From a virus (Duplodnaviria; Caudoviricetes): a stretch of DNA of 64,000 bases. Below, piece by piece: positions 1-60,221 of the stretch. Under the pieces are notes generated by a model. That model was not told the DNA's origin and searched no databases. It worked only from the letters and a program-made list of their open reading frames with translations. Numbering within the stretch: the stretch's first letter is position 1; the number at the start of each line of letters is the position of its first letter. The stretch lies in the IMG/VR virus record IMGVR_UViG_3300009108_000480; one strand, written 5' to 3'. Made by a program: the position numbers and the translations under genes.

Positions 1-102
1 ATACAAGTACAAATCTTTATATTAACTGGCGAAAGAACAATATTAAGTTACGTTACAACACCATTTCATAATAGTGTAGGACAGGCATTACAGGAAAGGT
101 AA
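1..102 (+). CDS. 3' end of HlyD-family type I secretion membrane-fusion protein (partial)
   Basis: Frame 1 reads IQVQIFILTGERTILSYVTTPFHNSVGQALQER*, matching the typical HlyD C-terminus (..IxTGERTxLSYLxxP....A.RER). Its stop overlaps the next ATG (TAATG). Absent from the ORF track. Confidence 0.7.
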   Translation: MQVQIFILTGERTILSYVTTPFHNSVGQALQER

Positions 103-2027
103 TGAAATTTTTTACAAGCATATGGATGGTTATTATTGTTGCTATTGTATTGTTAGGTGTCAGAGTAAACAATAACGATTCCGTAAAAACTTTAAGATAC
201 AAAACGTGGGATTACTTTCAAACTATACATCCTAGACAAGACATTAGTGATTTAATTACTATTGTTAATATAGGCGAAAAAGATATTGCAAAGTATGGAC
301 AATGGCCATGGCCTAGACATATTATGGCTATGCTTCATGCAAAACTAGGAGACGCAGGAGCAGTTGTAATTAATTACAATATTCTTTTTGCTGAACCAGA
401 TCGTATGGGATCAACGCAATATCTTAATTCTTTTCCTATGTCTAATGAAACTAGAGATGACCTGCAAAAAAAATTAGTAGACACAGATAGAGTTTTTGCT
501 GAAGTTATTAAAGCATCAGGCAATACTATTTTAATGATGAGTGTTAAAAATAATATTGATAACATTTTACCTAGCACAACGCAAATTATAAAAAAAGGAA
601 ATGTAGAACCATGGTTATGGAACTACGCAGGTATAGTACCTCCTTTAACTAAACTTACAGTAGGTGTAGCAGGAAGTGGTGTAAATGTAACAGCACCTGA
701 ACCTGATTCTGTTGTAAGAAAAATGCCAGTACTGATAACAGTAGGCAACAAAATATATCCTAGTATGTTAATTGAAAATGTTAGAGTAATTAACAAATCA
801 AGTAGAATTAAAGTTGTTGCAAAAGAGCACGGTATAGATGAAATCCTTGTTAAAAAGAATGCTGGAATACCTGTAAATCATAATGCAGAAATGTATATAA
901 ATTATGCAAATCCAAAAAAATATAATCACGTATCTGCTGACTATGTTTTAAGTTCTGAATTTGATGCAAATACAGTTAAAGGAAAAATAATAGTTGTAGG
1001 ATTAGATGCCGCAGGATTAAGTGTATTAAAATATACACCTTTTGGATTAACCACAGATCAAGAAATTACTGCTCAAGCATTAGATACATTACTAACAGGA
1101 AAATATTTGACTAGACTTCCACAGGCAGATACATATGAAATTTTGTTTATAGGTTTACTAGGATTATTAATGATAGTATTAATTCCTAGAGTATCAGTAT
1201 TATTTTCTGTTCCACTATTAGTTTTTGTATTAGGTGGAATAAGTTATGCATCATTTATGGCTTATGCAAACAAAGGTTGGTTAATAGATCCTTCATTTGC
1301 AGTATTATACATATTTTTAATTTGGTCGCATAGCACATACAATAATTTTGCAACACAAAGTAGACTAAGAAAACAAATTAAAAGACAATTTGAACATTAT
1401 TTAGATCCAAGCATGGTTAAAAAATTACAGAAAGATCCTTCACTATTAAAACTAGGTGGAGAAACAAAAACAATGACTTTCTTGTTTTCAGACATTAGAG
1501 GATTTACACCTATTAGTGAGAAGTACAAAGGTAATCCAGAAGCACTTACAAAACTTATTAATAGATTTTTAACTAGCATGACCGACATTATAATCAAAAA
1601 TGGTGGAACAATAGATAAGTTTATGGGCGACTGTATAATGGCATTTTGGAATGCTCCATTGGATAATAACAAACACAGACAACTAGCAGTTAAAAGTGCA
1701 ATTGAAATGCAAATAGAATTAGCATTATTAAATGTACAATTAGTTGCTGAAGGACTACCTCAAATTAATATAGGAATTGGTATTAACACAGGTGAAGCAC
1801 TTGTAGGTAATATGGGATCTAGACAAAGATTTGATTACTCTGTAATTGGAGATGCTGTAAATTTAGCAAGTAGACTAGAAAGCTCTAGTAAAACATTAGG
1901 CAAAACACTAGTAATAGGTGAAGACACTAGACACAGCATTGAAACAGTTTATCCTTTTGAATACATAGATAGCATTACAGTTAAAGGCAAAACTGAAAAA
2001 ATTAAAGTTTATACAATTAAAAATTAA
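102..2027 (+). CDS. CHASE2-domain class III adenylate cyclase (copy 1)
   Basis: N-terminal TM, CHASE2 motifs (GQWPWPR, DSVVRKMP), 3 TMs, then cyclase motifs FSDIRGFT, DKFMGD, GINTG, FDYSVIGDAVNLASRLE. K/D specificity residues indicate ATP. Confidence 0.93.
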   Translation: MKFFTSIWMVIIVAIVLLGVRVNNNDSVKTLRYKTWDYFQTIHPRQDISDLITIVNIGEKDIAKYGQWPWPRHIMAMLHAKLGDAGAVVINYNILFAEPDRMGSTQYLNSFPMSNETRDDLQKKLVDTDRVFAEVIKASGNTILMMSVKNNIDNILPSTTQIIKKGNVEPWLWNYAGIVPPLTKLTVGVAGSGVNVTAPEPDSVVRKMPVLITVGNKIYPSMLIENVRVINKSSRIKVVAKEHGIDEILVKKNAGIPVNHNAEMYINYANPKKYNHVSADYVLSSEFDANTVKGKIIVVGLDAAGLSVLKYTPFGLTTDQEITAQALDTLLTGKYLTRLPQADTYEILFIGLLGLLMIVLIPRVSVLFSVPLLVFVLGGISYASFMAYANKGWLIDPSFAVLYIFLIWSHSTYNNFATQSRLRKQIKRQFEHYLDPSMVKKLQKDPSLLKLGGETKTMTFLFSDIRGFTPISEKYKGNPEALTKLINRFLTSMTDIIIKNGGTIDKFMGDCIMAFWNAPLDNNKHRQLAVKSAIEMQIELALLNVQLVAEGLPQINIGIGINTGEALVGNMGSRQRFDYSVIGDAVNLASRLESSSKTLGKTLVIGEDTRHSIETVYPFEYIDSITVKGKTEKIKVYTIKN

Positions 2028-4234
2028 TCTGTTTGAATTATAGTTACTTCAGGTTTAGTAGAATCTGTACCAATTGTTATATTTTGAGTTTCTGAATCTT
2101 GAACTATTTGAATGTCTGCAGAGTCCGCCGTTTCAGATTTTATATATGCAGTATGACCACCATGCGTTCTGTTTACAATTGAATAGTTTCCACTTGTACT
2201 AGCAGTGGCATCGTTTGTATTACTACCAGTTGTATATCTTCCTGTTGCAGTTGATGATGAAGTTGCACCTGTGACACCATCTGTTGTAACTGTTGTTTGA
2301 GTAATATCTCCTGTTTCATAGTTAATAACTTCACCACTTGTTGTTACTGTTGTTCCAGCATCATTGTCAACCCATTCTGTACCGCAGGCTGAATTTGCAG
2401 TGTCCCAATAGTAACCCCAATTAAGACAATCTTCTTCGTTATCAATATCTGCTAACCATAGTTCTAATTCTAAATCTTGATCATAATCATCTTCGTAAGC
2501 ATACTCTTCTTCTAATGTTACTGAACCATCATCTTCTTCATACTCACCATAGTAGTACCAGTTGTAAGTCCAATCATAAAATGTATCCCAATCGTCCCAA
2601 GTCCAATCCGCAATATACTTGTCTTTTAAACTTGGCATATCCCAAGGATAGGGTTGACCTTCACAAAATTCCCAAGTCCAACTGCTTACCCAACACCAGC
2701 CATACCATTTTTTGAAAAGTGATTTAGCTTCTGGTGTCCATGAAGTATAATTTTTAAACAACTTCCAGTCATCTGTATACCAGTCATTTAAGTAATCTAA
2801 ATATTCTTGAGTACACCAATCACTACCATAGCCATTGTAATTACAATAATTTTCTATTGTTAAAGTTGGTGGGCCGCCATTTGCTATGTAATCTGAGTTA
2901 GCATAATATTCGTCATCTAATTTAAAATCTTCCCAAGTATATCCTTCAATTGTAGATGTTGCTTCTTCTTCAACTTCTTCAGATTTATCTTCTACTACGG
3001 CATCATAAGCCGTCAATCCATAATCTTCTAATAAGTCGTTATATTCTTCCATGTATGCAGTCCAATCAACTTCATCCCAATCTATAGAATCCCAATTAAT
3101 TGTGTCCCACGTACAATCTGAACAACCTATTGCGTCAAAGTATGCTTGATCCATTTCTGCATACATCTGTTTAGCATCATCCCAATCCATAGTTTGTTCA
3201 CCTTCAGCGTCCCACACTGATATTTGATTGTCGTCATCAATATAACCCCAATCTTTTAAATCGTCTTCCCATGAATCATAATAAGATGTATCTATGTCTG
3301 ATTCTACTACTTCATCTATTACTATATCTTGAGTAGAACTTGTATCTATTTCACTTGATTGTGTTGTAAAATCTTCAACTGCCACCGTAGTGTCTGATGT
3401 TAATGTGTCTGATTCAATTGTTAATTCCTCTGATACAATTTGTTCTTCCATTTCGTTGGCTTCTTTGGCATCCATTTCTATTTCTAAAGATTCTTGCTCT
3501 AACAACTCGTTAGATTCAAACATTTCTTTTTCGTTTTCTAAAAATTCGTTATTTTCTTTTCTATCAAATTGAAGATCATTTTTATCTTCAATACCGTCTT
3601 CAACACTATCTAAATCAAATAAATTCTTTTTCTGAAGATTATCTAATGGAGATGGTGCTCTAGGTACTAGGCTATCACTAATAACTGTTACTGATGTATA
3701 TACTTGGGTTATTGTTTGAGAACCTGCATCATTAGAAACTGTAACTTTTCCTACTTGCCCAGAAGAATCCGGAAGTAATGTAATTGTTGTAACTCCACTT
3801 GTTGATACTGATCCTGAAAATGCTGTACCTTGTACTGTAATTGTTGCTGTTGGCGTTGCAATTTCTACATCACCATTCATTTTAGAAATTTCGCCAGACT
3901 CGTAAGTAAACGTTCCTACGTTAACCGATACATTCATTGCAATTTCTATTGGCACAACTGTTGTGTCAAAAGCAAATTCATCAATTAAAAATTCTGTGTT
4001 AGGTGCAAGAGTAATTTTTGTTTCATCTACAAACACAATGTTCATAGCACCATCTTCTCCAGTTTGGAGAAAGTCATTCATTTCTAAAAGATAACCTGAT
4101 TCAACTTTATAAGTTTTTCCGCCACGTTCATTAAACGTGGAACCCATTTTGTCTTTAACTTCACCTACAGTTACAGCTAAAGCATTTGTAACAAATAGTA
4201 TCAAAAAGGATACCACAAAGAAGAACTTCTTCAT
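2024..4234 (-). CDS. Secreted FecR-domain protein with long acidic Trp/Tyr/Cys-rich C-terminal region
   Basis: Signal peptide MKKFFFVV..ALA; FecR-like motifs (LQTGEDG, DETKITLAPNT, TPTATITVQGT). ATG at 4234 lies 2 nt after the upstream stop. Confidence 0.8.
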   Translation of the reverse strand: MKKFFFVVSFLILFVTNALAVTVGEVKDKMGSTFNERGGKTYKVESGYLLEMNDFLQTGEDGAMNIVFVDETKITLAPNTEFLIDEFAFDTTVVPIEIAMNVSVNVGTFTYESGEISKMNGDVEIATPTATITVQGTAFSGSVSTSGVTTITLLPDSSGQVGKVTVSNDAGSQTITQVYTSVTVISDSLVPRAPSPLDNLQKKNLFDLDSVEDGIEDKNDLQFDRKENNEFLENEKEMFESNELLEQESLEIEMDAKEANEMEEQIVSEELTIESDTLTSDTTVAVEDFTTQSSEIDTSSTQDIVIDEVVESDIDTSYYDSWEDDLKDWGYIDDDNQISVWDAEGEQTMDWDDAKQMYAEMDQAYFDAIGCSDCTWDTINWDSIDWDEVDWTAYMEEYNDLLEDYGLTAYDAVVEDKSEEVEEEATSTIEGYTWEDFKLDDEYYANSDYIANGGPPTLTIENYCNYNGYGSDWCTQEYLDYLNDWYTDDWKLFKNYTSWTPEAKSLFKKWYGWCWVSSWTWEFCEGQPYPWDMPSLKDKYIADWTWDDWDTFYDWTYNWYYYGEYEEDDGSVTLEEEYAYEDDYDQDLELELWLADIDNEEDCLNWGYYWDTANSACGTEWVDNDAGTTVTTSGEVINYETGDITQTTVTTDGVTGATSSSTATGRYTTGSNTNDATASTSGNYSIVNRTHGGHTAYIKSETADSADIQIVQDSETQNITIGTDSTKPEVTIIQTD

Positions 4235-4236
4235 GA

Positions 4237-5325
4237 TTAACACCCGTTAGATACAGTAGCAGTTACATCAGCTGATTGAGTATTCCTGTTGTATGAATAT
4301 ACGCAAGTGTCTGAACCGTCTTGTGTAAAATTTAATGTATAGTCGTAAATGCTATCACCTGTTATAGTAACCTTACCATCATTACCTCCACCTGTTTGAG
4401 CAAAGTTTATTACTGAATCATCTGTATAAAGAAAAATTTTAGCAGTATTATTACCACCTGCCATGTGAAGTCTTATTGTATTATCATCACCATTTATTAT
4501 TGTTCTCAACCAATTGTTATCGCCTGATATTATTGCTGAATCTCCATAAGGGTCTGTATCAGAACCAGTGTAACTAGAATGAATATCTAAAAGATTTGAA
4601 TTACCTATAAAATCGTGAAGTTGATAGTTGCCTGTACCATATGATGAAGTGTGTATTACATTTGAATTTCCTACTATGTAAATATCTGCACTTGCACCTT
4701 CGCTACCTGAACTATCTGCAAACTGACTATGCGAAGCAGTTTGTGGACCAATTGCCTTATTTGCATTTGTATTAAATCCTTCTGAATCTGTTGAACTGTA
4801 CCATTCTACAGTATTTGAGTCACCTGACATACGAACATATAAGAAATGGTTGTCACCTCTATTCTGAACCCAAAATGTATTTGAATCTCCATAAATGTCT
4901 AAGTCAACATTGAAATTTGTTGTAGAGTCTGACCAAGTATCATAGTCTACTACGTTTGAATCACCTGTAATATCATGATCTAAATAAAAACCTGTAGCAT
5001 TAACGTCATCTATGTCAGGTCTTAATTTATTAGAATTACCAATTGCTGTATAATCAAAGGTCATATTAGTACCTTTAAAAGATAAGTGACCATTATAATC
5101 TGTTACGTTTGTATTACCTATTTGTTTAATAATAATAGTAATTTTATTTCCGTCAATTACAAAAGGATTATCTGTGCTTCTTCCAAACGTATTGTTTAAT
5201 CCGTCTTGTTTTATATAGACTGAACCATTTTCTTGATCAATTTGTGTTATAAAGACTTTATTACTCGCATAACAATTAATCGTTGTTGCTAGTAACAGTA
5301 TTAGACTCAATAATAACGCTCTCAT
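4237..5325 (-). CDS. Curlin-like (CsgA/CsgB-type) repeat protein
   Basis: Signal peptide MRALLLSL.. with GGAGGT SD (5331-5336); about 14 beta-arc units ending G-x-x-N (KQDGLNN, KQIGNTN, AIGNSN, ITGDSN, IYGDSN, MSGDSN, IVGNSN, ISGDNN, INGDDN..); adjacent to csgG. Confidence 0.7.
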   Translation of the reverse strand: MRALLLSLILLLATTINCYASNKVFITQIDQENGSVYIKQDGLNNTFGRSTDNPFVIDGNKITIIIKQIGNTNVTDYNGHLSFKGTNMTFDYTAIGNSNKLRPDIDDVNATGFYLDHDITGDSNVVDYDTWSDSTTNFNVDLDIYGDSNTFWVQNRGDNHFLYVRMSGDSNTVEWYSSTDSEGFNTNANKAIGPQTASHSQFADSSGSEGASADIYIVGNSNVIHTSSYGTGNYQLHDFIGNSNLLDIHSSYTGSDTDPYGDSAIISGDNNWLRTIINGDDNTIRLHMAGGNNTAKIFLYTDDSVINFAQTGGGNDGKVTITGDSIYDYTLNFTQDGSDTCVYSYNRNTQSADVTATVSNGC

Positions 5326-6529
5326 CTGCGACCTCCAATGCGGCTTTCTGATCATTTAAAATTGTTTGAATTTTTGCTTTACGTATTTCTTTTTCTGTTT
5401 CTTTTAAATCAAATGCTACTAACATTTTTAAATGGTCTTGATATTCATCCCAAGTTTTAAAATCTGTACTGTTAGCTTTATTATACCAAGCTAATTCATT
5501 CTTTTGAACTTTCTTTAAATGTTTTTTAGCCAACAATGCTTCTTTTTTAGCTAACTTTTCTGCCTTCAAGGCTTCTTTTTTAGCTTTCTTCTCTTCTAAC
5601 AATGCAAGTTTTTTAGCTTTCTTTTCTGCTAGGTATTCTTCTCTTGTTTTAATTTTTACTACTGTTTGTTCTACTTCTAAATTTACTTTTACTTCTTCTT
5701 CAGTAACAACTTCTGCATCTGACTCTTCAACTGCTTCTGGTAGTACTGGTTCCGGTGGTAGTTTAATTTTCCATATTTCTTTTTTAGCACCTACTTGTAT
5801 AATTTCTGCAACACCGGCTTCAATTGCTTTTCTCACAGCAAAAGTAACTGGTTCGTTTCTTGCTACTCCAATTTCAGTTTCTAATAACATTGTATCAGCA
5901 TCAAAGTACTTGAATATATCTCCACCTGTTCCTGTTGAGAATATTGTTTTTTCAATTGTTGTTGATATAACAACTTCACCTGTTTGCACATTTACTAATC
6001 TTAAAATAACAGTAACTACATCTTGTCTGTATTGTGTATTGGCTTGTACGCCTAAAATTCTTGCACCTATACCACCTGATTTAGTATCTGAATCGTATCC
6101 TACTATACCACCTGTAATATATGCACCTGCAAATAATAATGCTGGTAATGGTTCAGCTTGATCACCATCTGCCATTTGTCTTGTTGATCTAATAAGTTTT
6201 CTTTCTTGTAATAGGCTTGGTAGACTTGCTCTTTCAACAACTCTAAACCATTTGCCTTCTCCAGCATCTTGTAATGCTTTAATTAAAAGTTGATATGAAC
6301 CTTGAGTTACTGCTGTACTCATTGAAGCAAAATTGCCACCTGGCTTCTTTTGCCCTGTCATATCTAAGAAATCATAGACAGCAATTATAATTGGATCGCC
6401 ATCTAACTCAGGAACCTCAATAAATGTTTTTGCCGCAGGCTTTTGAGTTCTGTAATCGAAGTCTGGTTTACCAGCACAACTAGCCAGAAATAAAGTTGCT
6501 AGAAATATAATTGCTAATTTTTTAAACAT
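5276..6529 (-). CDS. csgG: CsgG curli secretion channel lipoprotein with long C-terminal extension
   Basis: Lipobox LASC; motifs AVYDFLDMTGQ, STAVTQG, WFRVVER, LLQERKLIR, GGIVGYDS, QYRQDVVTV, NEPVTFAVRKAIE. Confidence 0.9.
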   Translation of the reverse strand: MFKKLAIIFLATLFLASCAGKPDFDYRTQKPAAKTFIEVPELDGDPIIIAVYDFLDMTGQKKPGGNFASMSTAVTQGSYQLLIKALQDAGEGKWFRVVERASLPSLLQERKLIRSTRQMADGDQAEPLPALLFAGAYITGGIVGYDSDTKSGGIGARILGVQANTQYRQDVVTVILRLVNVQTGEVVISTTIEKTIFSTGTGGDIFKYFDADTMLLETEIGVARNEPVTFAVRKAIEAGVAEIIQVGAKKEIWKIKLPPEPVLPEAVEESDAEVVTEEEVKVNLEVEQTVVKIKTREEYLAEKKAKKLALLEEKKAKKEALKAEKLAKKEALLAKKHLKKVQKNELAWYNKANSTDFKTWDEYQDHLKMLVAFDLKETEKEIRKAKIQTILNDQKAALEVADESVIIESNTVTSNND

Positions 6530-6534
6530 TATTA

Positions 6535-6987
6535 TTAGTCTTCCTTCGGCATAGTAAATGATGTTACAGTTCCGTCTGTTTCAGTAACAGTAATTGTAAC
6601 ATTACCAGTACCTGAAGGCGTTGTCCAAGTTACAACTTCTCCACCAATAGGTGATGTAAATGTTCCTGAATCTTGTTGTAAGCCGTCAGCACCAAATACG
6701 TTTGTTGTAATTTGTTTTGCTAAAGCCGTATAAAATCTTGATTCTAAGTTTGCTTTGAATTTTGCTACCGCAGTATTTTTTGCATCTTGTTCTGCTTTTT
6801 CTTTTGCGGCTTTATCAGCGGCTTTTATAGCATCTTTTCTTGTTTTTTCTATGTTTTCAATGGTCAAATAATGTGAACTTTTGCCCTGTCCACTAAAAGA
6901 TGGACTGTCAAAGTCAAAAGTGATTTCACTGGCGTTTGACCCAGTTATCATGAATAAAAATAGTAATATTGTCGTTAAAATTCGCAT
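6535..6987 (-). CDS. csgF: CsgF-like curli assembly protein
   Basis: Signal peptide, mature start EITFDFDSPSFSGQG, then FKANLESRFYTALAKQI; directly upstream of csgG; AGGAGA SD. Confidence 0.75.
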   Translation of the reverse strand: MRILTTILLFLFMITGSNASEITFDFDSPSFSGQGKSSHYLTIENIEKTRKDAIKAADKAAKEKAEQDAKNTAVAKFKANLESRFYTALAKQITTNVFGADGLQQDSGTFTSPIGGEVVTWTTPSGTGNVTITVTETDGTVTSFTMPKED

Positions 6988-7014
6988 TTTTCTCCTAAAA
7001 TTCTTTTACCATAA

Positions 7015-7021
7015 TATTTAT
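7015..7021 (-). promoter_or_regulatory. Late-type promoter motif ATAAATA for the csgF operon
   Basis: Reverse complement of TATTTAT; followed by an AGGAGA SD and the csgF ATG. Confidence 0.5.
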
Positions 7022-7048
7022 GTAATATCTTAACCAATTTATATGCAC

Positions 7049-7055
7049 TTAAATA
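7049..7055 (+). promoter_or_regulatory. Late-type promoter motif TTAAATA for cyclase copy 2
   Basis: 10 nt upstream of ATG 7066; no SD. Confidence 0.45.
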
Positions 7056-7065
7056 TTGTACTATT

Positions 7066-8712
7066 ATGTCGAAAATTTTAACAAGCACCTGGGCGGTTTG
7101 TGTCACTTTGATGATCCTTTTATTCATAAAATGGGCAGACCCAACACCTATTCAGTCAGCAAAACTGACAACGTTTGATTCCTATCAAAAATTTGGACAA
7201 CACTTTGACTCAAAGAGTTTAATTTTGTTAGATATATCTGACGAAGCTCTAAAAAAACAAGGACAATGGCCATGGAAACGTGATATTTTAGGACGGACAA
7301 TAGTTAATGCTTATCGGAGTGGTGCCGCTCTGGTAGTCTTACAAGTCGTATTTGCACATAAAGATAGACTAGGCGGAGACGAAATGTTTCTTAAAATGAT
7401 TTCAAAATATCCAGTTATTCTTACCGAGACCGACGATGTTAAAAACTTACTCAGCATTGAACGAAAAGCCCGGGCGGTAGGTAATGTAAGTGTACCTATT
7501 GACATAGATGGTACTATAAGAAGACTACCACTTGATAGGTCAATTCCTGCTGTTATATTAGAAACAATTCAATATTACAATAAAGCAAAAAACGAAATAT
7601 GGTTAGATTTTAGACATCATATTCCACGAATAGATTATACAGACAAAAGTAACTGGTCAAAAATGAAGGGCAAAATTGTATTCATTGGAACTACATTTAA
7701 AGGATCAACATTCGTTACTACGCCTAATGGTTTAAAAAACACTCATGAGATTATGGCTATTGGTACAGAAACATTATTATCACAAAATTTTATTAGTAGA
7801 CCGGATTGGCTAGAGAAAGTAGAATGGGCATTTGTTATTATAGGAGGTATAATATTCCTAATTATTATTCCACGACTCGGCGTCCTATGGAGTTTTATAC
7901 CTATCATAGTTTATCTAAGTATTGTACTTGGAGCAAGTGCCTATCTATGGAACACAAAATTATATCTTACAGAATGGTTAACTCCTGTTGTAATTGTTAC
8001 CATAGTTTGGGGACATTTAATATACAATAACTTTGCACGTGAGAACAGACTAAAATTACAAATTAAAAGACAATTTGAACACTACCTAGATCCTAGAATG
8101 GTTAAAAAATTACAAAAAAATCCTTCTTTATTAAAACTAGGAGGCGAAACAAAAATAATGACATTTTTATTTTCAGATATACGTGGCTTTACACCTATAA
8201 GTGAAAAATATAAAGGCAATCCAGAAGGACTTACAAAACTTGTTAATAGATTTTTAACACGCATGACAAACGTTATAATTGCTAATGGTGGAACCGTAGA
8301 TAAGTTTATGGGAGACTGCATTATGGCATTTTGGAATGCACCACTTGATGTAAAAGATCATCAAATGTTAGCAGTAATGTCAGCGTCACAGATGCAAACA
8401 GAACTAGTAAAATTAAATGAAGAATTAACTGCAGAAGGATTACCTGAAATTAACATAGGCATAGGTATTAACACAGGTCAAGCACTTGTAGGTAATATGG
8501 GTTCTGATCAAAGATTTGACTACTCTGTAATTGGTGATGCTGTTAACCTTGCATCACGTTTAGAAAGCTCAAGTAAAACATTAGGCAAAACTTTGGTAAT
8601 TTCAGAGAATACTATGAAAGGTATTGAACATATATTTCCGTTTGAATATATCGACAGCATTACCGTCAAAGGTAAGACCGAACCTATCAAGGTTTATACC
8701 GTGGTAAGATAG
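7066..8712 (+). CDS. CHASE2-domain class III adenylate cyclase (copy 2, shorter sensor)
   Basis: GQWPWKR and DIDGTIRR CHASE2 motifs, TMs, and a catalytic domain with the same intact motifs as copy 1. Confidence 0.92.
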   Translation: MSKILTSTWAVCVTLMILLFIKWADPTPIQSAKLTTFDSYQKFGQHFDSKSLILLDISDEALKKQGQWPWKRDILGRTIVNAYRSGAALVVLQVVFAHKDRLGGDEMFLKMISKYPVILTETDDVKNLLSIERKARAVGNVSVPIDIDGTIRRLPLDRSIPAVILETIQYYNKAKNEIWLDFRHHIPRIDYTDKSNWSKMKGKIVFIGTTFKGSTFVTTPNGLKNTHEIMAIGTETLLSQNFISRPDWLEKVEWAFVIIGGIIFLIIIPRLGVLWSFIPIIVYLSIVLGASAYLWNTKLYLTEWLTPVVIVTIVWGHLIYNNFARENRLKLQIKRQFEHYLDPRMVKKLQKNPSLLKLGGETKIMTFLFSDIRGFTPISEKYKGNPEGLTKLVNRFLTRMTNVIIANGGTVDKFMGDCIMAFWNAPLDVKDHQMLAVMSASQMQTELVKLNEELTAEGLPEINIGIGINTGQALVGNMGSDQRFDYSVIGDAVNLASRLESSSKTLGKTLVISENTMKGIEHIFPFEYIDSITVKGKTEPIKVYTVVR

Positions 8713-8715
8713 AAT

Positions 8716-8723
8716 TATAAATA
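8716..8723 (+). promoter_or_regulatory. T4-late-like promoter TATAAATA
   Basis: Exact T4 late consensus, 6 nt before ATG 8730. Confidence 0.6.
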
Positions 8724-8729
8724 GCTATA

Positions 8730-8891
8730 ATGGACGCAGACACAATAACAATAATATCTAAACTATGGCCCATCTTTGTGGCCTTCATATTGCTCATTGT
8801 GACTTTAGCACAATCGCATTATCGAATTAAAGTGCTTGAAGAAAAAGTCAAAGTTGCGTTCGATCTCATCAATAAGTTGACTAAGAAATAA
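8730..8891 (+). CDS. Small membrane protein (53 aa)
   Basis: MDADTITIISKLWPIFVAFILLIVTLAQSHYRIKVLEEKVKVAFDLINKLTKK*; one TM plus coiled coil; below the ORF-track cutoff. Confidence 0.65.
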   Translation: MDADTITIISKLWPIFVAFILLIVTLAQSHYRIKVLEEKVKVAFDLINKLTKK

Positions 8892-8943
8892 ACTCACTTA
8901 ACTTTTAAATCAACACACTTAAATAAATCGAGCGGGGAAGGAA

Positions 8944-9198
8944 ATGAAATTTATAATGGTAATAATAATATGTTTTGGCATGGATTGTAATGCAATCTGG
9001 GAACAGACATGGTATCCATCTATGAACGACTGCCTTAATGCATCACAAAATGTTAAAAATTTCATGGTGAAACAATATCCAACTTCTGCTGGCGAAATAT
9101 ATTGCATGAATGAACCCGAATTTAACGAATATTACGATTACCTAGAAAATGGTGGTAAACCTACCTTGGAATCTTTACCAAACCCATCAGCCATCTAA
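8944..9198 (+). CDS. Hypothetical small secreted Cys-containing protein
   Basis: Hydrophobic N-terminus, Cys pattern C..C..C..C, purine-rich SD. Confidence 0.6.
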   Translation: MKFIMVIIICFGMDCNAIWEQTWYPSMNDCLNASQNVKNFMVKQYPTSAGEIYCMNEPEFNEYYDYLENGGKPTLESLPNPSAI

Positions 9199-9227
9199 TT
9201 GACAGATCTTGGTTTTCATAGTAAAAT
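9199..9227 (+). promoter_or_regulatory. Sigma70-type promoter
   Basis: TTGACA-17-TAAAAT; ATG 9233 follows 5 nt later. Confidence 0.7.
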
Positions 9228-9232
9228 AAACT

Positions 9233-9520
9233 ATGAGAAGTAAAATCAGAAGAAGTCTGGTAAAAACCTTGACTTGGAGAATCCTTGCGACTACTGATAC
9301 ATTTTTAATCAGTTGGATAATTACAGGTTACCTAACGTTAGCGGGTGCTATTGCAGGTATTGAGGTAATAACAAAAATGTTTTTATATTATGCTCACGAA
9401 AGAGGATGGAGCAAAATTAAATGGGGTTATGACGGACCTGAAGAACATACCCATATATTTCCATTTGCAGAAGATTGGAAACCTATAAAATACGATTTTA
9501 GAACGAAGGAGAAAGAATAA
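9233..9520 (+). CDS. DUF2061-like membrane protein
   Basis: RSLVKTLTWRILAT...KMFLYYAHERGW signature. Confidence 0.75.
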   Translation: MRSKIRRSLVKTLTWRILATTDTFLISWIITGYLTLAGAIAGIEVITKMFLYYAHERGWSKIKWGYDGPEEHTHIFPFAEDWKPIKYDFRTKEKE

Positions 9521-9524
9521 TTGT

Positions 9525-9743
9525 ATGGTTATAAAAACTGCACCAGCTCCTTCAACTCAAAAGGCTTGGGAATTCAATTTAAAGTTAGAAAAGAAAACTA
9601 TAAAAACGTTTGTTTATAGTGATACTGGAAAAGACATTGAAGCAAGATTTCCTAATCACAAAATTACTAATATAAAACAAATTCCAGATCCATTAAAAGA
9701 TGTTGGTGAACCTGGATGGAAACCAAAGGCAAAATACTCATGA
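9525..9743 (+). CDS. Hypothetical protein
   Basis: ORF in a co-oriented run; ATGA overlap with the next gene. Confidence 0.55.
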   Translation: MVIKTAPAPSTQKAWEFNLKLEKKTIKTFVYSDTGKDIEARFPNHKITNIKQIPDPLKDVGEPGWKPKAKYS

Positions 9744-10273
9744 TCCACGCAATGATAGATTTGGAAACATTAAGCACTAACCCTAATGCTGTGATTTTAA
9801 CAGTAGGTGGTGTAAAATTTGATCCATATACACACACAGAACCATCACAAGGTATGTATTTTAAAGTAGATGTGGATTCACAAACTACTACAGGCAGAGA
9901 AGTAATGCAAGAAACAATTGATTGGTGGGCAACACAATCAAAAGAAATACAAGATGAAGCTATGGGTGAAAAAGATCGAATACCTCTTGAAGAAATGGTT
10001 AAAAGAATTAACAAATGGGCAGTAGGTGTGAATGTATTTTGGTGTCAAGGACCTTTATTTGATTATGCTATATTACAAAATTTATATAAACAATTAGGAC
10101 ATCCTGTTCCATGGCAATACTGGCAAATACGAGATTCTCGAACTTTGTTTAGTTTAGTACCACGTGATCTTAACGAAGTAAGAACAGGTATGCATAATGC
10201 ATTAGAAGACTGTTACTTTCAAGCAAGAAAAGTACAAAAAGTATATAAACAGTTAGGGATTAGAAATGTATAA
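9740..10273 (+). CDS. DEDDh 3'-5' exonuclease (DexA/exoribonuclease-like)
   Basis: MIDLETL (ExoI), QGPLFDYAIL, RDSRT, HNALEDC (ExoIII). Confidence 0.85.
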   Translation: MIHAMIDLETLSTNPNAVILTVGGVKFDPYTHTEPSQGMYFKVDVDSQTTTGREVMQETIDWWATQSKEIQDEAMGEKDRIPLEEMVKRINKWAVGVNVFWCQGPLFDYAILQNLYKQLGHPVPWQYWQIRDSRTLFSLVPRDLNEVRTGMHNALEDCYFQARKVQKVYKQLGIRNV

Positions 10274-10586
10274 ACCACTTCCAGATGGAATCACAATTAA
10301 ATATTCTAAAATACAAGGATTAGGATTATATGCTACAAAAGATTTCCCAAAAGATACAGTATTTGGAATTGTACATATTAAAAATAAAAACTTTCCACAC
10401 GGTCATATAAGAACGGCTTTAGGAGCATTTTATAATCATTCAATTAATCCAAATTGTAAAACATATCAAGGATTTTGGCATCAATTACCAGTAGTATACC
10501 TTATGTCAATTAAAAATATTAAAACAGACGAAGAATTAACAGCCAAATATTCATTATACATGGATTTTGATGACAATGGAAACTAA
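10266..10586 (+). CDS. SET-domain protein
   Basis: SKIQGLGLYATKD, FYNHSINPNC, IKTDEELTAKY. Confidence 0.85.
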   Translation: MYKPLPDGITIKYSKIQGLGLYATKDFPKDTVFGIVHIKNKNFPHGHIRTALGAFYNHSINPNCKTYQGFWHQLPVVYLMSIKNIKTDEELTAKYSLYMDFDDNGN

Positions 10587-10845
10587 AACTTATTATAAAA
10601 AACTAACTGATTGTATCCTTCACTATTTTAGACTAGACTTACAACTACATTTCTTATGGTCTTTCTTTTTAACTATGTTTGCAATATTTTGGCTACCATT
10701 AGTATGGTTAGGACTTATTGCAACAATTATTAAAGAAGGACTAGACTTATGGAGTAAAGGTCACTGGAGTTGGGATGACTTTTGGTATGGTTTTGCTGGA
10801 TGGGTTTGTGGAATAATTTTCCTCTACAATTTTATTTGGTATTAA
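10567..10845 (+). CDS. Hypothetical membrane protein
   Basis: Several hydrophobic segments; KEGLD...WSWDDF motif. Confidence 0.6.
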   Translation: MMTMETKTYYKKLTDCILHYFRLDLQLHFLWSFFLTMFAIFWLPLVWLGLIATIIKEGLDLWSKGHWSWDDFWYGFAGWVCGIIFLYNFIWY

Positions 10846-10846
10846 A

Positions 10847-11221
10847 ATGGATATTAAATGGTATTCTATAGAAGATTTATATACTATAAACAAATATAAG
10901 ATACGACATAATAAAAATCCAGTTACCAAATGGATAAAATTACCTTGTGTATATAAAATAAAAATTAACAAAACAATAGTACACATAGGAAGATCTGATA
11001 CTTGCAAAAAACACGGTGGTGCTGAAAAAGTTAGAAAAGCAATAGTTAATTTATTAAATATTACTGATTATAATACATCTGTGCCTAAAACAAAATATTG
11101 GACCGAAATTAGGTTGCAACATCGTCCAAACTCAAGTAATATTAAAATAGGAATAATAAAAACCAATGCCATCAAAAAAACCTACATTCAAGAAACCCAG
11201 AGAAGTAATCAAATATTATGA
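10847..11221 (+). CDS. Hypothetical protein, weakly GIY-YIG-like
   Basis: CVYKI..IVHIGRS resembles GIY-x-YIG; weak. Confidence 0.4.
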   Translation: MDIKWYSIEDLYTINKYKIRHNKNPVTKWIKLPCVYKIKINKTIVHIGRSDTCKKHGGAEKVRKAIVNLLNITDYNTSVPKTKYWTEIRLQHRPNSSNIKIGIIKTNAIKKTYIQETQRSNQIL

Positions 11222-11573
11222 AGAATGTACTTGGTTGGGTAATGCCAAACCAATGTTCCAAAATAAAAAAGTTTCAGTATTCTACGATAAATTTCCGGTC
11301 ACAAAAGGACATTTATTATTTGTACCAAAAAAAAATAATATAGAACATATTACTGAAGCATACAAACTCGCTTTTTATTGTGGAGAAGAATGGATCAAAG
11401 AAGGCAGAATGGATGGATTTAATATAGGACAAAATATTGGATTAGCCGCTGGACAATCTATTATGTGGCCACACGTACATTTAATTCCTCGGCATAACGG
11501 TGATTGTAAACCTAAAAAATCTAATGGAATAAGACTATGTCATCCTAATGGCGATCACAAACGATATTACTAA
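11166..11573 (+). CDS. HIT-family nucleotide hydrolase
   Basis: DKFPVTKGHLLFVPK, GFNIGQNIG..AGQS, WPHVHLIPR. Confidence 0.85.
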   Translation: MPSKKPTFKKPREVIKYYEECTWLGNAKPMFQNKKVSVFYDKFPVTKGHLLFVPKKNNIEHITEAYKLAFYCGEEWIKEGRMDGFNIGQNIGLAAGQSIMWPHVHLIPRHNGDCKPKKSNGIRLCHPNGDHKRYY

Positions 11574-11860
11574 TGAAAAAAAGAAAAAAGAAATTAACTT
11601 GGCCAATGAGTGTTGACGATGTTCCAAAAGGTGTAATTTTTGTTTCTCCTGATGGTGGTGAAACAGTTTTTATACAAAAGAAAAATGGAAAAAGAGGCAA
11701 AATGGTTTCACAATCCCAATTAGCTAAAGATATTGAGGTAGCATATAACGAAAATGATATGGTAGGTGCTGATGCTATTAAATTACGTAGAAAATATCCT
11801 ACTTTACAAAAAGCCTGGAATCGATACAAAACAGTTTGGCATCTGGTTAACGAAGATTAG
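11573..11860 (+). CDS. Hypothetical protein
   Basis: Coupled ORF; FVSPDGGETVF motif. Confidence 0.55.
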   Translation: MKKRKKKLTWPMSVDDVPKGVIFVSPDGGETVFIQKKNGKRGKMVSQSQLAKDIEVAYNENDMVGADAIKLRRKYPTLQKAWNRYKTVWHLVNED

Positions 11861-11875
11861 CATAATTATTGATAT

Positions 11876-13330
11876 ATGTGTGGAATAGTTGGAATATACA
11901 ATGTTCCTGAAGCTTCTAAAATTGCGGCATTAGGCATTCATGCCTTGCAACATCGAGGCCAAGAAGGTGCGGGTATTATTTCATACGATAAAAAATTTCA
12001 TACCCACGGTGACTATGGACGTGTTGATCATATTTTTAGTAAAAATAAAGTTATAGAAAATCTTCCAGGTAGTACAGCAATTGGACACGTTAGATACAGT
12101 ACTACTGGAGGCACTGGAAAAAGTAATGTTCAACCATTATTTTACAATTTAGACTTCGGTGGTTTTGCTATTGCCCATAATGGTGACTTTACTGATTCTG
12201 CATATTGGAGACAAAAGCTATCTGAAGAAGGTGCAATATTTCAAACATCAACTGATACAGAAATTATTCCACATTTAATTGCTCGAACAAAAGGTATTGA
12301 TCCTGTGGATCGTTTACTCACAGTATTGAATAAAGTAAATGGTGCATTTAGCATAATAGCATTAATGGATAATAAATTAGTTGTCGCTCGAGATCCTTAT
12401 GGCTTTCGTCCTTTAGTTATAGGTCAATACAAAGAAGGATATGCAATAGCATCAGAAACCTGTGCTCTTGATTTAATTGGTGCAACAAATATTAGAGATG
12501 TTGAACCTGGAGAAGTAATTATATTTGATAACGAAACAACACTAAAAAATTGGGCCATGGATGTTAATTTCAAATGGTCTCGGTTAGACCAGAAGGAAGA
12601 TTCTATCAGTTCACAGAGAAAAAAAGTAAAAAAAGATAGAGAAACATATTATTTAGATAAAAAAGTTACAAAACATTTTTGTATATTTGAACACATTTAT
12701 TTTTCGAGACCTGATTCTGTTATTGATAACCAATTAGTATATGATGTTCGTAAAAGAATAGGTGAAGAATTAGCAAAAGAAACTTATGTTGATTCTGATA
12801 TGGTTGTTCCAGTACCTGATTCTGGTATGGTATCTGCACTTGGATATGCTAACCAATCAAAAATTCCTTTTGAACTAGGACTTACACGAAGTCATTACAG
12901 AGGAAGAACATTTATTGAACCTACACAAAAAATACGAGACTTGGGTGTAAAATTAAAACATAGTGCTATGCGATTATTTAAAGATAAAACAGTTACCGTT
13001 ATTGATGATTCTATTGTTAGAGGCACAACAGCAAAGAAAATTATAAATTTAATAAGAAATGCAGGCGCTAAAGAAATTCATATGCGTATTTCATCTCCGC
13101 CAGTTACTGGTCCGTGTTGGTATGGTATAGATACACCAAACAGAAAAGAGCTTATAGCCGGAGAAAGTAACGTAAAAGAAATTAAAGAATTTATTGATGC
13201 TGATTCATTAGAATATATATCTATAGAAGGATTACATAAAGCAATGAAAAGTAAAGGCTATTGCGACGCTTGTTTTACTGGAAAATATCCTGTTAAAAAA
13301 AGAAGTTATGCCGAAAATATTGGTGGATAG
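11876..13330 (+). CDS. purF: Amidophosphoribosyltransferase
   Basis: N-terminal MCG nucleophile, LQHRGQE, GHVRYST, IAHNG, VPVPDSG, PRPP motif VIDDSIVRGTT, CDACFTGKYP. Confidence 0.96.
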   Translation: MCGIVGIYNVPEASKIAALGIHALQHRGQEGAGIISYDKKFHTHGDYGRVDHIFSKNKVIENLPGSTAIGHVRYSTTGGTGKSNVQPLFYNLDFGGFAIAHNGDFTDSAYWRQKLSEEGAIFQTSTDTEIIPHLIARTKGIDPVDRLLTVLNKVNGAFSIIALMDNKLVVARDPYGFRPLVIGQYKEGYAIASETCALDLIGATNIRDVEPGEVIIFDNETTLKNWAMDVNFKWSRLDQKEDSISSQRKKVKKDRETYYLDKKVTKHFCIFEHIYFSRPDSVIDNQLVYDVRKRIGEELAKETYVDSDMVVPVPDSGMVSALGYANQSKIPFELGLTRSHYRGRTFIEPTQKIRDLGVKLKHSAMRLFKDKTVTVIDDSIVRGTTAKKIINLIRNAGAKEIHMRISSPPVTGPCWYGIDTPNRKELIAGESNVKEIKEFIDADSLEYISIEGLHKAMKSKGYCDACFTGKYPVKKRSYAENIGG

Positions 13331-43512: not shown

Positions 43513-43711
43513 TGCTATGGAAGATGAATTTGGATTTAACGATATAAGTGAAGCAGACTATAACAAATTGAGAGCTAAAGAACAAAAGAAAAGTATGCCA
43601 CAAACAAGGAAAGTAAAAAGAAGAAAAAAGAAAAAGAAAATTAATCACTTTAAAGGATTAGGTGGCGGTGGTAGCAGAGGACCTTGGCCAAAAATTGGAG
43701 GAACAGACTAA
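43493..43711 (+). CDS. Hypothetical basic protein
   Basis: Acidic N-terminus, K/R-rich middle; contains the clpA SD; TAATG coupling. Confidence 0.5.
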   Translation: MQRKEYNAMEDEFGFNDISEADYNKLRAKEQKKSMPQTRKVKRRKKKKKINHFKGLGGGGSRGPWPKIGGTD

Positions 43712-47620: not shown

Positions 47621-47648
47621 TTGACTTCTACCAAAAGTATAGTATTAT
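47621..47648 (+). promoter_or_regulatory. Sigma70-type promoter for the subtilase gene
   Basis: TTGACT-16-TATTAT; ATG 47657. Confidence 0.5.
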
Positions 47649-47656
47649 TATACTAT

Positions 47657-50600: not shown

Positions 50601-51268
50601 CAAGTGGTGCATTAGCAGTTGGTGATAATAACATTACAAATTTTGGACAAATAGGTATTGAATATCAATTAGGTAACAATGTGTTAAGTTTTGATTATTC
50701 AAAAGGTTATACAGATGTTAATACAACTGATAATAGTTTAATAACAGGATTTGATAACATTGAAACAGAATCTATGAAACTAGCATATGAAGTACACAAG
50801 GATCAAAATAATTCTTGGGGATTCTCATTATCAACACCAAGTCATATTACAAATGGTACAATGAATTTAACGGTTCCTGAATCAAGAACATTAGATGGTG
50901 ATGTTAATTATACAACTATCGAATCTGATATGAGTCCTTCTAAAATTGAAAAAGATATTGGATTCTTTTATAATCACACACCAACAAATGATATGGATGC
51001 ATCTTGGAACTTTAAAGCAGAATACAGACAAGATATTGCTGGACAAGATGGACACGATGGTGTTAGTTTAGGATTTAACTATGTTAAAAAATTACACACA
51101 AATTGTAAATTTTTATGGATGAAAAATCCAAAATGTTACGAAAAAGATGGCAAAACTTTAAAAGCAAATTTATACGGTGACAGCAGAAATAATAATTCAA
51201 TAGCATTAACACACGGATTAGTTTACGATTTAGAAACAGACAAATTCGTTCCAATTAAAAAGAAATAA
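47657..51268 (+). CDS. Lipoprotein S8 subtilase with Thr-rich stalk and probable C-terminal beta-barrel
   Basis: Lipobox LSAC-GGGG; triad GIIDT, HGTHVAG, GTSMAAPHV; oxyanion NSAGN; HGQGLLDL; amphipathic beta-strand C-terminus. Confidence 0.9.
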   Translation: MINAKLRKILLSTALATTLSACGGGGGGSGAGVVNDFVQGDLSNLSGSSSIVSSYSSLLSNFQSTISSGNYSSLQAVLTGPDADDIETANTLLSMLNQAETLWSQTEDLISSKDDSTKYTIYNSNSYKEAYAAMIYLRDHVKPIIQKVSNGNAVSLTEYNLVAKEDKAQEIINTEKDTTATSYAETKKIKSTETVSGTSTVSTVDTVGTAEASTSTSDWTTVNAGGGQETRTITITTPNYRTTTTTPCTIVRKTLLNGTTVDSACTYGTPVVSTIALDPTVETSTETREGDNPVITSETLEATVNTVTETNDQYVVTNYADAEDTNTTTANGTAVTTTANRDVVTDVDNGDNTTTRTTVRYVDTTITTPVTTTVTRTRTYTDITKQNSRTITTTTPQTKVTYKDGTSETISGTATVVTSDWTVNTISTATRTEELPVSETTANTVSTSSNSGTQIAQVTISNAYTDQDTTLGTKTENMSTVVNDHKTTEYNTNHGLNTINAADAYAKGWTGKGAVLGIIDTYQQTDHPELSGKYKWYNDYTRYDNTVSTSGNTQVHGTHVAGIIAGKKNNTGNHGVAFDAELVGANVDYYGYGGISKSYAQQALHDFAKLKDPNGENLNIVAVNMSWNTPTLFTNGQGSTVTQLGDGTYNASEITSKMDNGDGNAKYYKVATDNDIILVNSAGNYGFNHSGDPGIWAVEVDASGNLILGGKMIIVGNWDNGTIAGNKAGHVCLDISNNACNDQYKVSDFYILAPGNLINSSVPTHLGGNGYMNMSGTSMAAPHVTGAFGVINQMWPHMKGDNLVKLILSTANKNIYGYNVNTHGQGLLDLSEATKPQGATGIPTTGRTNGPIINVYGTYFATGTALPSNLANLKVMILDEYERDYYLNLGSSFSVKDMRKVSDIDMMMNGHTYLPIQSMYGNFAQGGNYDLGYMNFGIYSGENGNGDFSANIGKNFMLSNKFKLKTSIGQMNEQDNWLGNSSSGALAVGDNNITNFGQIGIEYQLGNNVLSFDYSKGYTDVNTTDNSLITGFDNIETESMKLAYEVHKDQNNSWGFSLSTPSHITNGTMNLTVPESRTLDGDVNYTTIESDMSPSKIEKDIGFFYNHTPTNDMDASWNFKAEYRQDIAGQDGHDGVSLGFNYVKKLHTNCKFLWMKNPKCYEKDGKTLKANLYGDSRNNNSIALTHGLVYDLETDKFVPIKKK

Positions 51269-60213: not shown

Positions 60214-60221
60214 TATAAATA
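60214..60221 (+). promoter_or_regulatory. T4-late-like promoter TATAAATA
   Basis: Exact consensus, 6 nt before ATG 60228. Confidence 0.65.

Follow-up and report, generated by a model that had tools for sequence, protein, structure and literature searches.

The window analysed here is a 64,000-nucleotide (nt) stretch of DNA from a virus (Duplodnaviria; Caudoviricetes; IMG/VR record IMGVR_UViG_3300009108_000480). Near certainly, gene identities included, its positions 1-8712 are the junction of two separable cassettes, A and B. Cassette B is the curli module (type VIII secretion system, T8SS) already published for pelagiphages, and its core of csgF, csgG, curlin, FecR and cyclase genes is not new. 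New here are the identification of the sensor of the phage cyclases as CHASE2, the finding that FecR and CHASE2 genes are paired as a rule, and cassette A, another cassette of like design that phages carry. These points narrow, and do not solve, the question of what the phage curli module does, which is called a mystery in Zaragoza-Solas et al. 2020, Buchholz et al. 2022 and Wittmers et al. 2022; CHASE2 is mentioned in none of the three. The two cassettes are read here as sharing one design, in which a conduit exports a fibre or adhesin and a FecR-fold domain would be read by a CHASE2 sensor that controls synthesis of cyclic AMP (cAMP). The probability of this composite reading is put at about 50%.

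Two cassettes meet at the left end of the window

Six genes are found at 102-8712, and open reading frames (ORFs) and Pfam agree with the coordinates and domains given to them in the first-pass annotation, which was made from the sequence alone. Cyclase a (cyclase 1; 102-2027, + strand, 641 amino acids (aa); Pfam CHASE2 1e-42 and Guanylate_cyc 1e-22) meets tail-to-tail with the gene of a FecR-domain protein, FecR-long (2024-4243, - strand, 736-739 aa, with a likelier ATG start at 4234; Pfam FecR at residues 59-155, 2.5e-07), the stops overlapping by 4 nt. Also on the - strand are the curlin (CsgA/B-like) gene (4237-5355, likely start 5325, 362 aa, without a Pfam match), csgG (5276-6529; Pfam CsgG 8e-49) and csgF (6535-6987; Pfam CsgF 1e-12; phrog_35372 8e-35), with the start of the curlin gene overlapping the end of csgG by about 50 nt. 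A divergent intergenic region of 78 nt (6988-7065) separates csgF from cyclase b (cyclase 2; 7066-8712, + strand, 548 aa; Pfam CHASE2 2e-28 and cyclase 8e-22). The overlaps and the short gap bear out the tight packing that had been described, and PHROGs families exist for five of the six module proteins.

The earlier description of these genes as one twin-cyclase module does not hold, however, as there are two separable cassettes and cyclase 1 closes an operon that enters from the left. Cyclase a is the terminal gene of cassette A and not of the curli operon. Cassette A lies mostly left of the window, within which it is represented only by 102-2027 and by positions 1-99 (+ strand). The latter are the 3' end of a gene for an HlyD-like membrane-fusion (periplasmic adaptor) protein, the second-to-last gene of the cassette (by tblastn, the HlyD_3 protein of locus L086 is matched at its C-terminus with 78% identity). 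The true left flank is supplied by the ENA scaffold L085, an independent assembly with 99.85% identity to window 1-12027, which carries genes for a giant cadherin protein and for TolC-like, ABC-membrane-like (ATP-binding cassette, ABC) and HlyD-like proteins. The giant-FecR, OEP (TolC-like), 251-aa and HlyD genes always precede cyclase a (13 IMG/VR and 4 ENA loci), and cassette A is found without adjoining curli genes at 13 IMG/VR and 3 ENA loci, the exception being the window's own lineage. Conversely, in two complete genomes with terminal repeats (G004 and G005, 177 and 171 kb) the curli block comes with one cyclase of the b-type, and an a-type is absent. In locus L014, positions 1-4383 align with window 735-8875 at 85-89% nt identity, and there the whole curli block, cyclase b included, occupies the same site in the opposite orientation with respect to cyclase a. 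The curli block behaves as a movable unit.

FecR and CHASE2 genes are paired in phages and in cells

A FecR-domain protein and a CHASE2 sensor are a recurrent gene pair in both phages and cells, whatever the secretion system. The viral survey covered 80 IMG/VR loci of the window clade and 80 of the clade of Pelagibacter phage HTVC008M. In the window clade, curlin and FecR genes are present in 52 of the 53 loci with enough downstream sequence. Exactly one CHASE2 cyclase is found in all of the loci that are testable on both sides (35/35), in each case the orthologue of cyclase b, which lies divergently upstream of csgF in 23 loci and downstream of FecR in 12. FecR is present in 41/41 loci of the HTVC008M clade, and a CHASE2 cyclase in 19/20. 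The gene-neighbourhood survey proposed with the first-pass annotation finds the linkage conserved.

The FecR domains of cassettes A and B are homologous (alignment A4), and a scan of this alignment against one genome per prokaryote species returned 80 cellular loci. Six of these 80 FecR-anchored loci carry CsgF or CsgG, and these are probably phage contigs binned into metagenome-assembled genomes (MAGs). At L186, a T4-like DNA polymerase is encoded on the same contig as the CsgG/FecR/CHASE2 locus; one MAG bin contains eight or more different T4-type DNA polymerases, each on its own contig, and in another MAG such a polymerase lies on a different contig. Species-representative MAGs with the labels Rhodobacteraceae, Luteolibacter and Pelagibacter (L183 and L199, in G007; L186, in G006; L189, in G008) contain T4-like phage contigs. 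Neither CsgG nor CsgF is found in the remaining 74 FecR-anchored cellular loci. A CHASE2 gene lies 0-2.9 kb from the FecR gene in 32/74 of them, and near the FecR gene in 23 of the 43 cellular loci with at least 5 kb on both sides. By Pfam, the proteins encoded at the cellular loci include CHASE2-cyclases, long FecR-headed proteins (with collagen repeats in one case) and a protein of the CHASE2-PAS-kinase-receiver type. At a Rhodospirillaceae locus (L194), a giant FecR protein is accompanied by a TolC-like and a FecR-barrel protein.

The link between FecR and CHASE2 that had been proposed at first pass is supported by gene association, being near-universal in the viral loci, present in 32/74 of the cellular ones and found in published operons (PMC5192318), but the novelty of the module had been overrated (PMC9599517).

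The two CHASE2 cyclases

In both cyclases, CHASE2 lies between hydrophobic segments and is followed by a class III catalytic domain (Pfam, translations). The motifs F-S-D-I-R-G-F-T, D-K-F-M-G-D, G-I-N-T-G and N-L-A-S-R-L-E are found in both, presumably supplying two Asp for metal binding, the Lys that specifies adenine, with its Thr/Asp, and Asn and Arg for the transition state. The nearest solved relatives are adenylate cyclases, the catalytic domain of cyclase b matching CyaB 3r5g at 4e-37 and 6fht at 9e-41. With their motifs intact, both proteins are predicted to be class III adenylate cyclases.

Cyclases a and b are 83% identical in the catalytic 220 residues and about 25% identical in the sensor, with tree distances of 0.37 (catalytic) and 3.4 (CHASE2) substitutions per site. 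In the CHASE2 tree, the a-clade and b-clade are separated by cassette with strong support (1.0 each), and the b-clade joins the cyclases of HTVC008M and of the Melnitz phages. In the catalytic tree, all a-types nest with window-like b-types in one clade of 17 tips (support 1.0). Third codon positions of the two catalytic domains are just 62% identical, which rules out recent or ongoing gene conversion between them. Since the synonymous positions have diverged to this extent, the likeness of the catalytic domains reflects an old domain swap or shared origin that has been maintained by selection. Cyclase a has more than 2,000 metagenomic homologues, and those in marine metagenomes form more than 120 protein clusters at at least 85% identity; an exact-sequence look-up of cyclase a found no identical entry.

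Curli proteins of cassette B

The CsgG core (residues 1-262) matches the E. coli CsgG structures 3x2r/6l7a (1.4e-43, residues 8-256), and a lipobox, L-A-S-C, is visible in the translation, identifying it as an outer-membrane lipoprotein channel. The constriction loop is not as in E. coli. A C-terminal tail of about 155 aa (window 5276-5743) is helical and rich in Lys, Glu and Ala; its length varies among relatives, in which CsgG is 305 to 474 aa long. When checked for charge complementarity with the acidic linker of FecR-long, the tail proved net neutral, with one 46-residue basic stretch only. The csgF gene is directly upstream of csgG in all relatives and its product has a signal peptide; the Pfam CsgF match exceeds the cut-off, and there is no sequence match to solved CsgF.

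The 362-aa protein has a signal peptide and about 14 arcs of the form G-x-[SN]-N at a period of 22-28 residues. Its AlphaFold model (predicted local distance difference test score (pLDDT) 75) consists entirely of paired strands. In an exhaustive VIA search of 48,161 PDB representatives, CsgA of Pontibacter korlensis (8c50_A) fits the model best, at Z 24.7 with 21% identity over 281 aligned residues and a root-mean-square deviation (rmsd) of 8.9, about 6 Z units ahead of generic beta-helices (next match, Z 18.6). A Foldseek search of the model against PDB and Swiss-Prot AlphaFold models gave nothing significant. The family aligns with the curlin-1 family of HTVC008M and Melnitz with an hhalign probability of 98.2%; the Melnitz protein of that family is recognised by Pfam Curlin_rpt, to which the window protein has no match, even at E = 5. 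Because of the hhalign match and the CsgA-like model, the protein is assigned as a curlin (CsgA/B-like) beta-solenoid subunit, and the earlier label of curlin-like is upheld.

No additional ORF of at least 60 aa and no Pfam match to CsgE, CsgC or CsgD is found in the module. It also has no histidine kinase gene, the neighbour of csgF being the divergent CHASE2 cyclase b.

The FecR-long protein

FecR-long starts with a short hydrophobic, signal-peptide-like helix (residues 2-18), directly followed by the FecR domain (Pfam FecR; 31.5 bits, cut-off 24). In the model, a FecR-fold beta domain (about 24-195) is followed by an acidic disordered linker and then by a middle domain (about 313-566) that is mostly helical (pLDDT 80-90) and strongly acidic, with about 24 Trp and 6-8 invariant Cys. 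This Trp/Cys-rich domain has no recognisable relative outside the phage family. The C-terminal end of about 110 aa is beta-rich. FecR-long is kept as a single ORF of 710-850 aa, with the invariant Cys and Trp, in 34 non-redundant relatives. Structural matches of the FecR domain include the PupR signalling domain 6ovk_R (Z 15.4, rmsd 2.0, 126 residues; residues 51-195) and 4m0n (Z 14.6). FecR-long has no cytoplasmic anti-sigma domain; it is a secreted protein and not a Fec-type regulator.

That FecR-long arose by fusion of FecR to the second curlin/PA14 gene present in phages of the HTVC008M type is retained as no more than a lead: BLASTP gave nothing significant, and the only hhalign match was of 40 C-terminal residues with a probability of 8%. 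The C-terminal 540 aa do not match Pfam Curlin_rpt, even at E = 5.

Cassette A, a type-I-secretion-like neighbour

Cassette A (L085:3-6466; L086:838-11926) is a co-directional operon of giant FecR/cadherin, TolC-like, ABC-membrane-like, HlyD-like and CHASE2 cyclase genes, with a small membrane protein gene also present at some loci. The giant protein of L086 has 1,759 aa and neither a signal peptide nor any hydrophobic segment. At its N-terminus is a FecR domain that exceeds the cut-off with 28 bits, and it also carries cadherin repeats and a 440-residue Glu-rich (36% Glu) coiled-coil stretch. The TolC-like protein of the same locus matches Pfam OEP at 1e-48, and the HlyD-like adaptor is short (HlyD_3, 9e-17). 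The 251-aa protein has 4-5 membrane helices and no Pfam match, and its language-model (Atlas) features are like those of ABC membrane domains. Neither the LapG protease nor the c-di-GMP (cyclic di-GMP) receptor LapD is among the genes of the cassette. Each cassette A locus retains its own CHASE2 cyclase. No match to the TolC-like protein was found by tblastn in 50,697 deposited phage records, and no description of cassette A in phages was found in the literature.

Long charged helical extensions that are absent from cellular homologues are seen in both CsgG and the TolC-like protein (N-terminal 200 aa, L086:6173-6770). In both FecR-headed proteins, a strongly acidic segment comes straight after the FecR domain. 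As judged from these sequence features, the extensions and the acidic segments could form a docking arrangement.

Proposed mechanism and alternatives

In the composite reading, each cassette would install an outer-membrane conduit in the infected cell and export either curlin as a fibre or the cadherin giant as an adhesin. The FecR-fold domain would remain periplasmic, like the N-terminal plug of LapA and MpIBP adhesins, and its presence or mechanical state would be read by the cognate CHASE2 domain, which would control cAMP synthesis. Two unlike sensors would in this way feed near-identical catalytic domains making cAMP. The receiver of the cAMP may be a host factor or something else; a host factor is suggested because no cyclic nucleoside monophosphate (cNMP)-binding protein is found in the 117.8-kb phage record. 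It is gene association that points to the route from fibre through FecR and CHASE2 to cAMP, and a functional contact between FecR and CHASE2 is given about even odds. A complex prediction for CHASE2-b (24-250) with the FecR domain (21-200) scored 0.02, which counts neither for nor against binding. The tracking of cassette type by the sensor clades and the generality of the FecR-CHASE2 pairing both count for the composite reading.

Several observations weigh against this reading. No cNMP-binding domain or cAMP receptor is found in the 117.8 kb of the phage record, which is incomplete. One HTVC008M-type locus (L170) has no cyclase within 6 kb, and the position and strand of the cyclase vary relative to the curli genes, which fits loose coupling as well as tight. 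Residues 20-117 of FecR-long match the MpIBP periplasmic plug 5ix9 over 74 of 76 residues at Z 7.8, a level where a common beta-sandwich arrangement is possible, and the comparison was made with the FecR domain of the curli cassette rather than with its homologue in the giant protein. The hhalign probability of curlin likeness at the C-terminus of FecR-long is only 8%. Cassette A loci have no ABC ATPase gene, leaving the secretion mechanism unexplained. In addition, cultures infected with Melnitz do not clump, and a pore or lysis role is favoured by the authors of that study (PMC9004378).

Three other explanations are possible. FecR and the cyclases may be upstream regulators, with cAMP (or, in podophages, a histidine kinase) tuning curli secretion and FecR acting as a periplasmic channel accessory, such as a stand-in for CsgE, rather than as an input to the cyclase. 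Regulation of the T8SS by FecR and the cyclase is the published proposal of Wittmers et al. (PMC9599517), and csgE, csgC and csgD are indeed not in the module, in which the Sec-exported FecR-long comes directly after the curlin gene. However, FecR-CHASE2 pairs are common in cells without CsgG or CsgF, so the pair needs no curli channel, and the same pair occurs again with a different secretion system in cassette A. Lytic phage genes are, moreover, not obviously under cAMP control, and the phage record holds no cNMP-binding regulator; upstream regulation is thus considered unlikely, if the most plausible of the three. Slightly less plausible is that the cyclases are independent host-takeover enzymes, which swamp the cell with cAMP or some other cyclic nucleotide and merely share an auxiliary-gene island with the curli genes. 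The hypervariability of the region, the shifting position and strand of the cyclase, the inversion at L014 and the separate occurrence of cassettes A and B would all be expected from this. It does not account for the retention of exactly one CHASE2 cyclase at the curli loci (35/35) and of a CHASE2 cyclase at 19/20 in the HTVC008M clade, with each cassette A keeping its own, nor for the match of sensor clades to cassette type and the same adjacency in unrelated cellular genomes. A periplasmic sensor would also be needless in a constitutive takeover enzyme. More doubtful again is a plain outer-membrane pore of CsgG and CsgF without a fibre, for lysis timing (pinholin- or secretin-like, Buchholz et al. 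2022) or uptake of larger molecules (Zaragoza-Solas et al. 2020). Both roles are published, and the unclumped Melnitz cultures, the missing csgE and the altered constriction loop of CsgG agree with them. Yet a CsgA-like beta-solenoid with a signal peptide, its model closest to solved CsgA, is encoded in 52/53 loci, CsgF is always retained, although a pore, unlike nucleation, can do without it, and FecR and CHASE2 are left unexplained.

Two further explanations carry very little weight. The Pfam name, a suggestion in the literature and the fold match to the PupR periplasmic domain might indicate a Fec-type regulator of cell-surface signalling for iron (ferric citrate), but this is contradicted by the domain architecture and is highly improbable: only the PF04773 part matches, a cleavable signal peptide stands in place of the anti-sigma domain and anchor, neither cassette contains a TonB-dependent transducer or ECF (extracytoplasmic function) sigma factor gene, and the same domain is found at the N-terminus of a cadherin protein of 1,759 aa. 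Misassembly of host DNA onto phage DNA, a chimera that the first-pass annotation had named as fatal to its proposal, is refuted for practical purposes. The IMG/VR record of the window phage does stop within cyclase a, at window position 871, and some homologous loci are filed under bacterial MAGs. However, L085 is near-identical across the whole junction, the module is present in the same layout in more than 150 IMG/VR loci, the complete genomes G004 and G005 carry the curli block, and the "bacterial" contig of L186 has a T4-like DNA polymerase.

The composite reading leads to the hypothesis that a secreted fibre is coupled to cAMP via FecR-CHASE2 contact, which is testable in HTVC008M/Pelagibacter, Melnitz/OM43 or E. 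coli. The signal might serve in aggregation, superinfection status or lysis timing. The hypothesis would in addition offer a starting point for learning what CHASE2 senses, so far known only in Sinorhizobium meliloti. A broader idea, which is speculative and on balance improbable, is that FecR-fold domains heading exported fibres or adhesins are periplasmic "plug-and-report" modules, held under a CsgG/CsgF or TolC-like conduit with the remainder of the protein outside, their state (present, pulled or released) being read by CHASE2 and turned into cAMP, and that two versions were captured by marine phages. With these, an infected cell could report surface contact, aggregation or attack by a second phage and adjust the infection, for example the timing of lysis. 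Such a logic would, if true, explain many FecR/CHASE2 pairs of unassigned function in cellular genomes.

Relationship to published phage modules

Wittmers et al. 2022 (PMC9599517) described a module of histidine kinase(s), CsgF, CsgG, CsgA/B, FecR, a second CsgA/B and an adenylate cyclase in podo- and myoviruses, at all 65 GOV2.0 stations and in metatranscriptomes, and noted that Pelagibacter, the host of related phages, has no curli genes. Zaragoza-Solas et al. 2020 (PMC7029224) described a "curli operon" of pelagimyophages in a hypervariable island, and proposed "sibling capture" and uptake of larger molecules. A pore or lysis-timing role was proposed for Melnitz by Buchholz et al. 2022 (PMC9004378). 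The literature agrees with the statement in the first-pass annotation that csgF and csgG had been reported from marine myophages. The genes csgE, csgC and csgD are reported absent in phages and Alphaproteobacteria.

The same gene set is found by tblastn in HTVC008M and in four Melnitz isolates, where the annotations are CsgF, CsgG, curlin-repeat, FecR-domain, curlin-repeat and adenylate/guanylate cyclase. The window shares with these phages the order csgF-csgG-curlin-FecR-...-cyclase in a variable region of T4-like marine myophages, and the absence of csgE, csgC and csgD. Window CsgG is 50% identical to that of HTVC008M and 42% to that of Melnitz, with 32-34% identity for the FecR domain and 33-37% for the cyclase. 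FecR of the window clade is one protein of 710-850 aa with an extra Trp/Cys-rich domain and a beta-rich C-terminus, whereas HTVC008M and Melnitz have a protein of about 370 aa and a separate curlin/PA14 gene. The helical CsgG tail of about 155 aa, the frequently divergent position of the cyclase upstream of csgF and the adjoining cassette A also set the window clade apart from them. Unlike the podophage form of the module, the window has no histidine kinase before csgF.

Relationship to cellular systems

The E. coli curli T8SS is matched in the CsgG core and lipobox, in the Pfam CsgF family and in a subunit model closest to solved CsgA. The phage module differs in having no CsgE, CsgC or CsgD, in its altered CsgG constriction loop, in being encoded by a lytic phage, and in a subunit with about 14 arcs of longer period that fails Pfam Curlin_rpt.

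In S. meliloti, the outer-membrane barrel NsrA relays an external protein signal to CHASE2 cyclases (PMC13001267), the only characterised ones, and the comparison with this system made at first pass is apt. CyaD1 becomes constitutive once CHASE2 is deleted, and the FecR-domain gene SMc02177 is among the targets of Clr (cAMP), although dispensable for perception of the plant signal. Like CyaD1, CyaD2 and CyaK, the phage cyclases have CHASE2 amid membrane helices and a class III catalytic domain. Their partner, however, is a secretion conduit with a FecR-headed secreted protein rather than NsrA, and no Clr-like receptor is found in the 117.8-kb phage record.

The structure 5ix9 is a periplasmic plug that holds the type-I-secreted adhesin MpIBP in the TolC pore, and is a template for the retention module of LapA. 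Like LapA of Pseudomonas fluorescens and MpIBP of Marinomonas primoryensis, cassette A encodes a giant signal-less repeat protein, a putative adhesin, beside TolC-like and HlyD-like genes. It differs in being carried by a phage and in having no detected ABC ATPase, RTX repeats or LapG/LapD. LapD reads c-di-GMP, whereas the enzyme linked to cassette A is a predicted cAMP-making CHASE2 cyclase.

FecR/PupR anti-sigma regulators resemble FecR-long in the fold of the periplasmic beta domain (6ovk_R, 4m0n) and in the Pfam FecR match. FecR-long has a signal peptide instead of the cytoplasmic anti-sigma domain and membrane anchor, and its FecR domain is fused to long secreted regions. A FecR(LysM) gene lies next to a CHASE2 histidine kinase in the Burkholderia "BiofilmReg" operon, and likewise in PA4035-PA4036 of Pseudomonas aeruginosa; interruption of the response-regulator gene abolishes biofilm formation in the Burkholderia case (PMC5192318). 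The output of the phage pair is a cyclase, not a kinase and response regulator, and BiofilmReg has no secretion conduit or fibre gene.

The phage and the rest of the window

The window is AT-rich (about 32% G+C), and nearly all genes outside the 102-8712 module are on the + strand. Genes in the window for a clamp loader, for baseplate and tail-fibre-like proteins and for a family B DNA polymerase of the T4 type identify the phage as a T4-like marine myophage, and also confirm the module as phage-borne, as had been proposed. No match to the 9-kb region was found among deposited phages by megablast. The IMG/VR record is 117.8 kb long, with a CheckV completeness estimate of 33%, and the full contig in the protein database is 200.6 kb. 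The phage is therefore probably large and may be a jumbo myophage. Related fragments of 67-148 kb (G001-G003) are 16-41% complete according to CheckV, and relatives with the curli block alone are complete at 171-177 kb. The two-cassette lineage may be that of a jumbo phage of about 350 kb.

Elsewhere, the window carries many auxiliary metabolic genes. The gene at 25141-27636, after a baseplate/tail-fibre-like gene, encodes 831 aa and its product has He_PIG/cadherin-type Ig repeats. A 789-aa ATP-dependent protease (phrog_4871) is encoded at 43684-46053, and the product of 47621-51268, 1,215 aa long, contains a subtilase S8 domain.

Transcription of the module

A scan of the module for sigma-70 promoters and terminators gave nothing above shuffles. 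The gap at 6988-7065 presumably holds promoters; no T4 late-promoter motif is found inside the module, the gap between csgF and cyclase b included. Contigs from marine RNA libraries (three studies, 90-99% identity) cover FecR, curlin, csgG and csgF in part, and the cyclases over short stretches. Transcription of the modules of relatives would fit this, without being proved by it. These contigs carry neither strand nor level, DNA carry-over is possible and uncovered parts are uninformative, and they are at most weakly consistent with the published metatranscriptome evidence for the module. Over the whole window, the T4 late-promoter motif TATAAATA occurs in 2 copies against 15.4 +/- 3.8 expected from shuffles. 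One copy is at 8716-8723, 4 nt past the cyclase b stop, and the other at 60214-60221, shortly before the ORF at 60228. Outside its places of use, the motif seems to be avoided.

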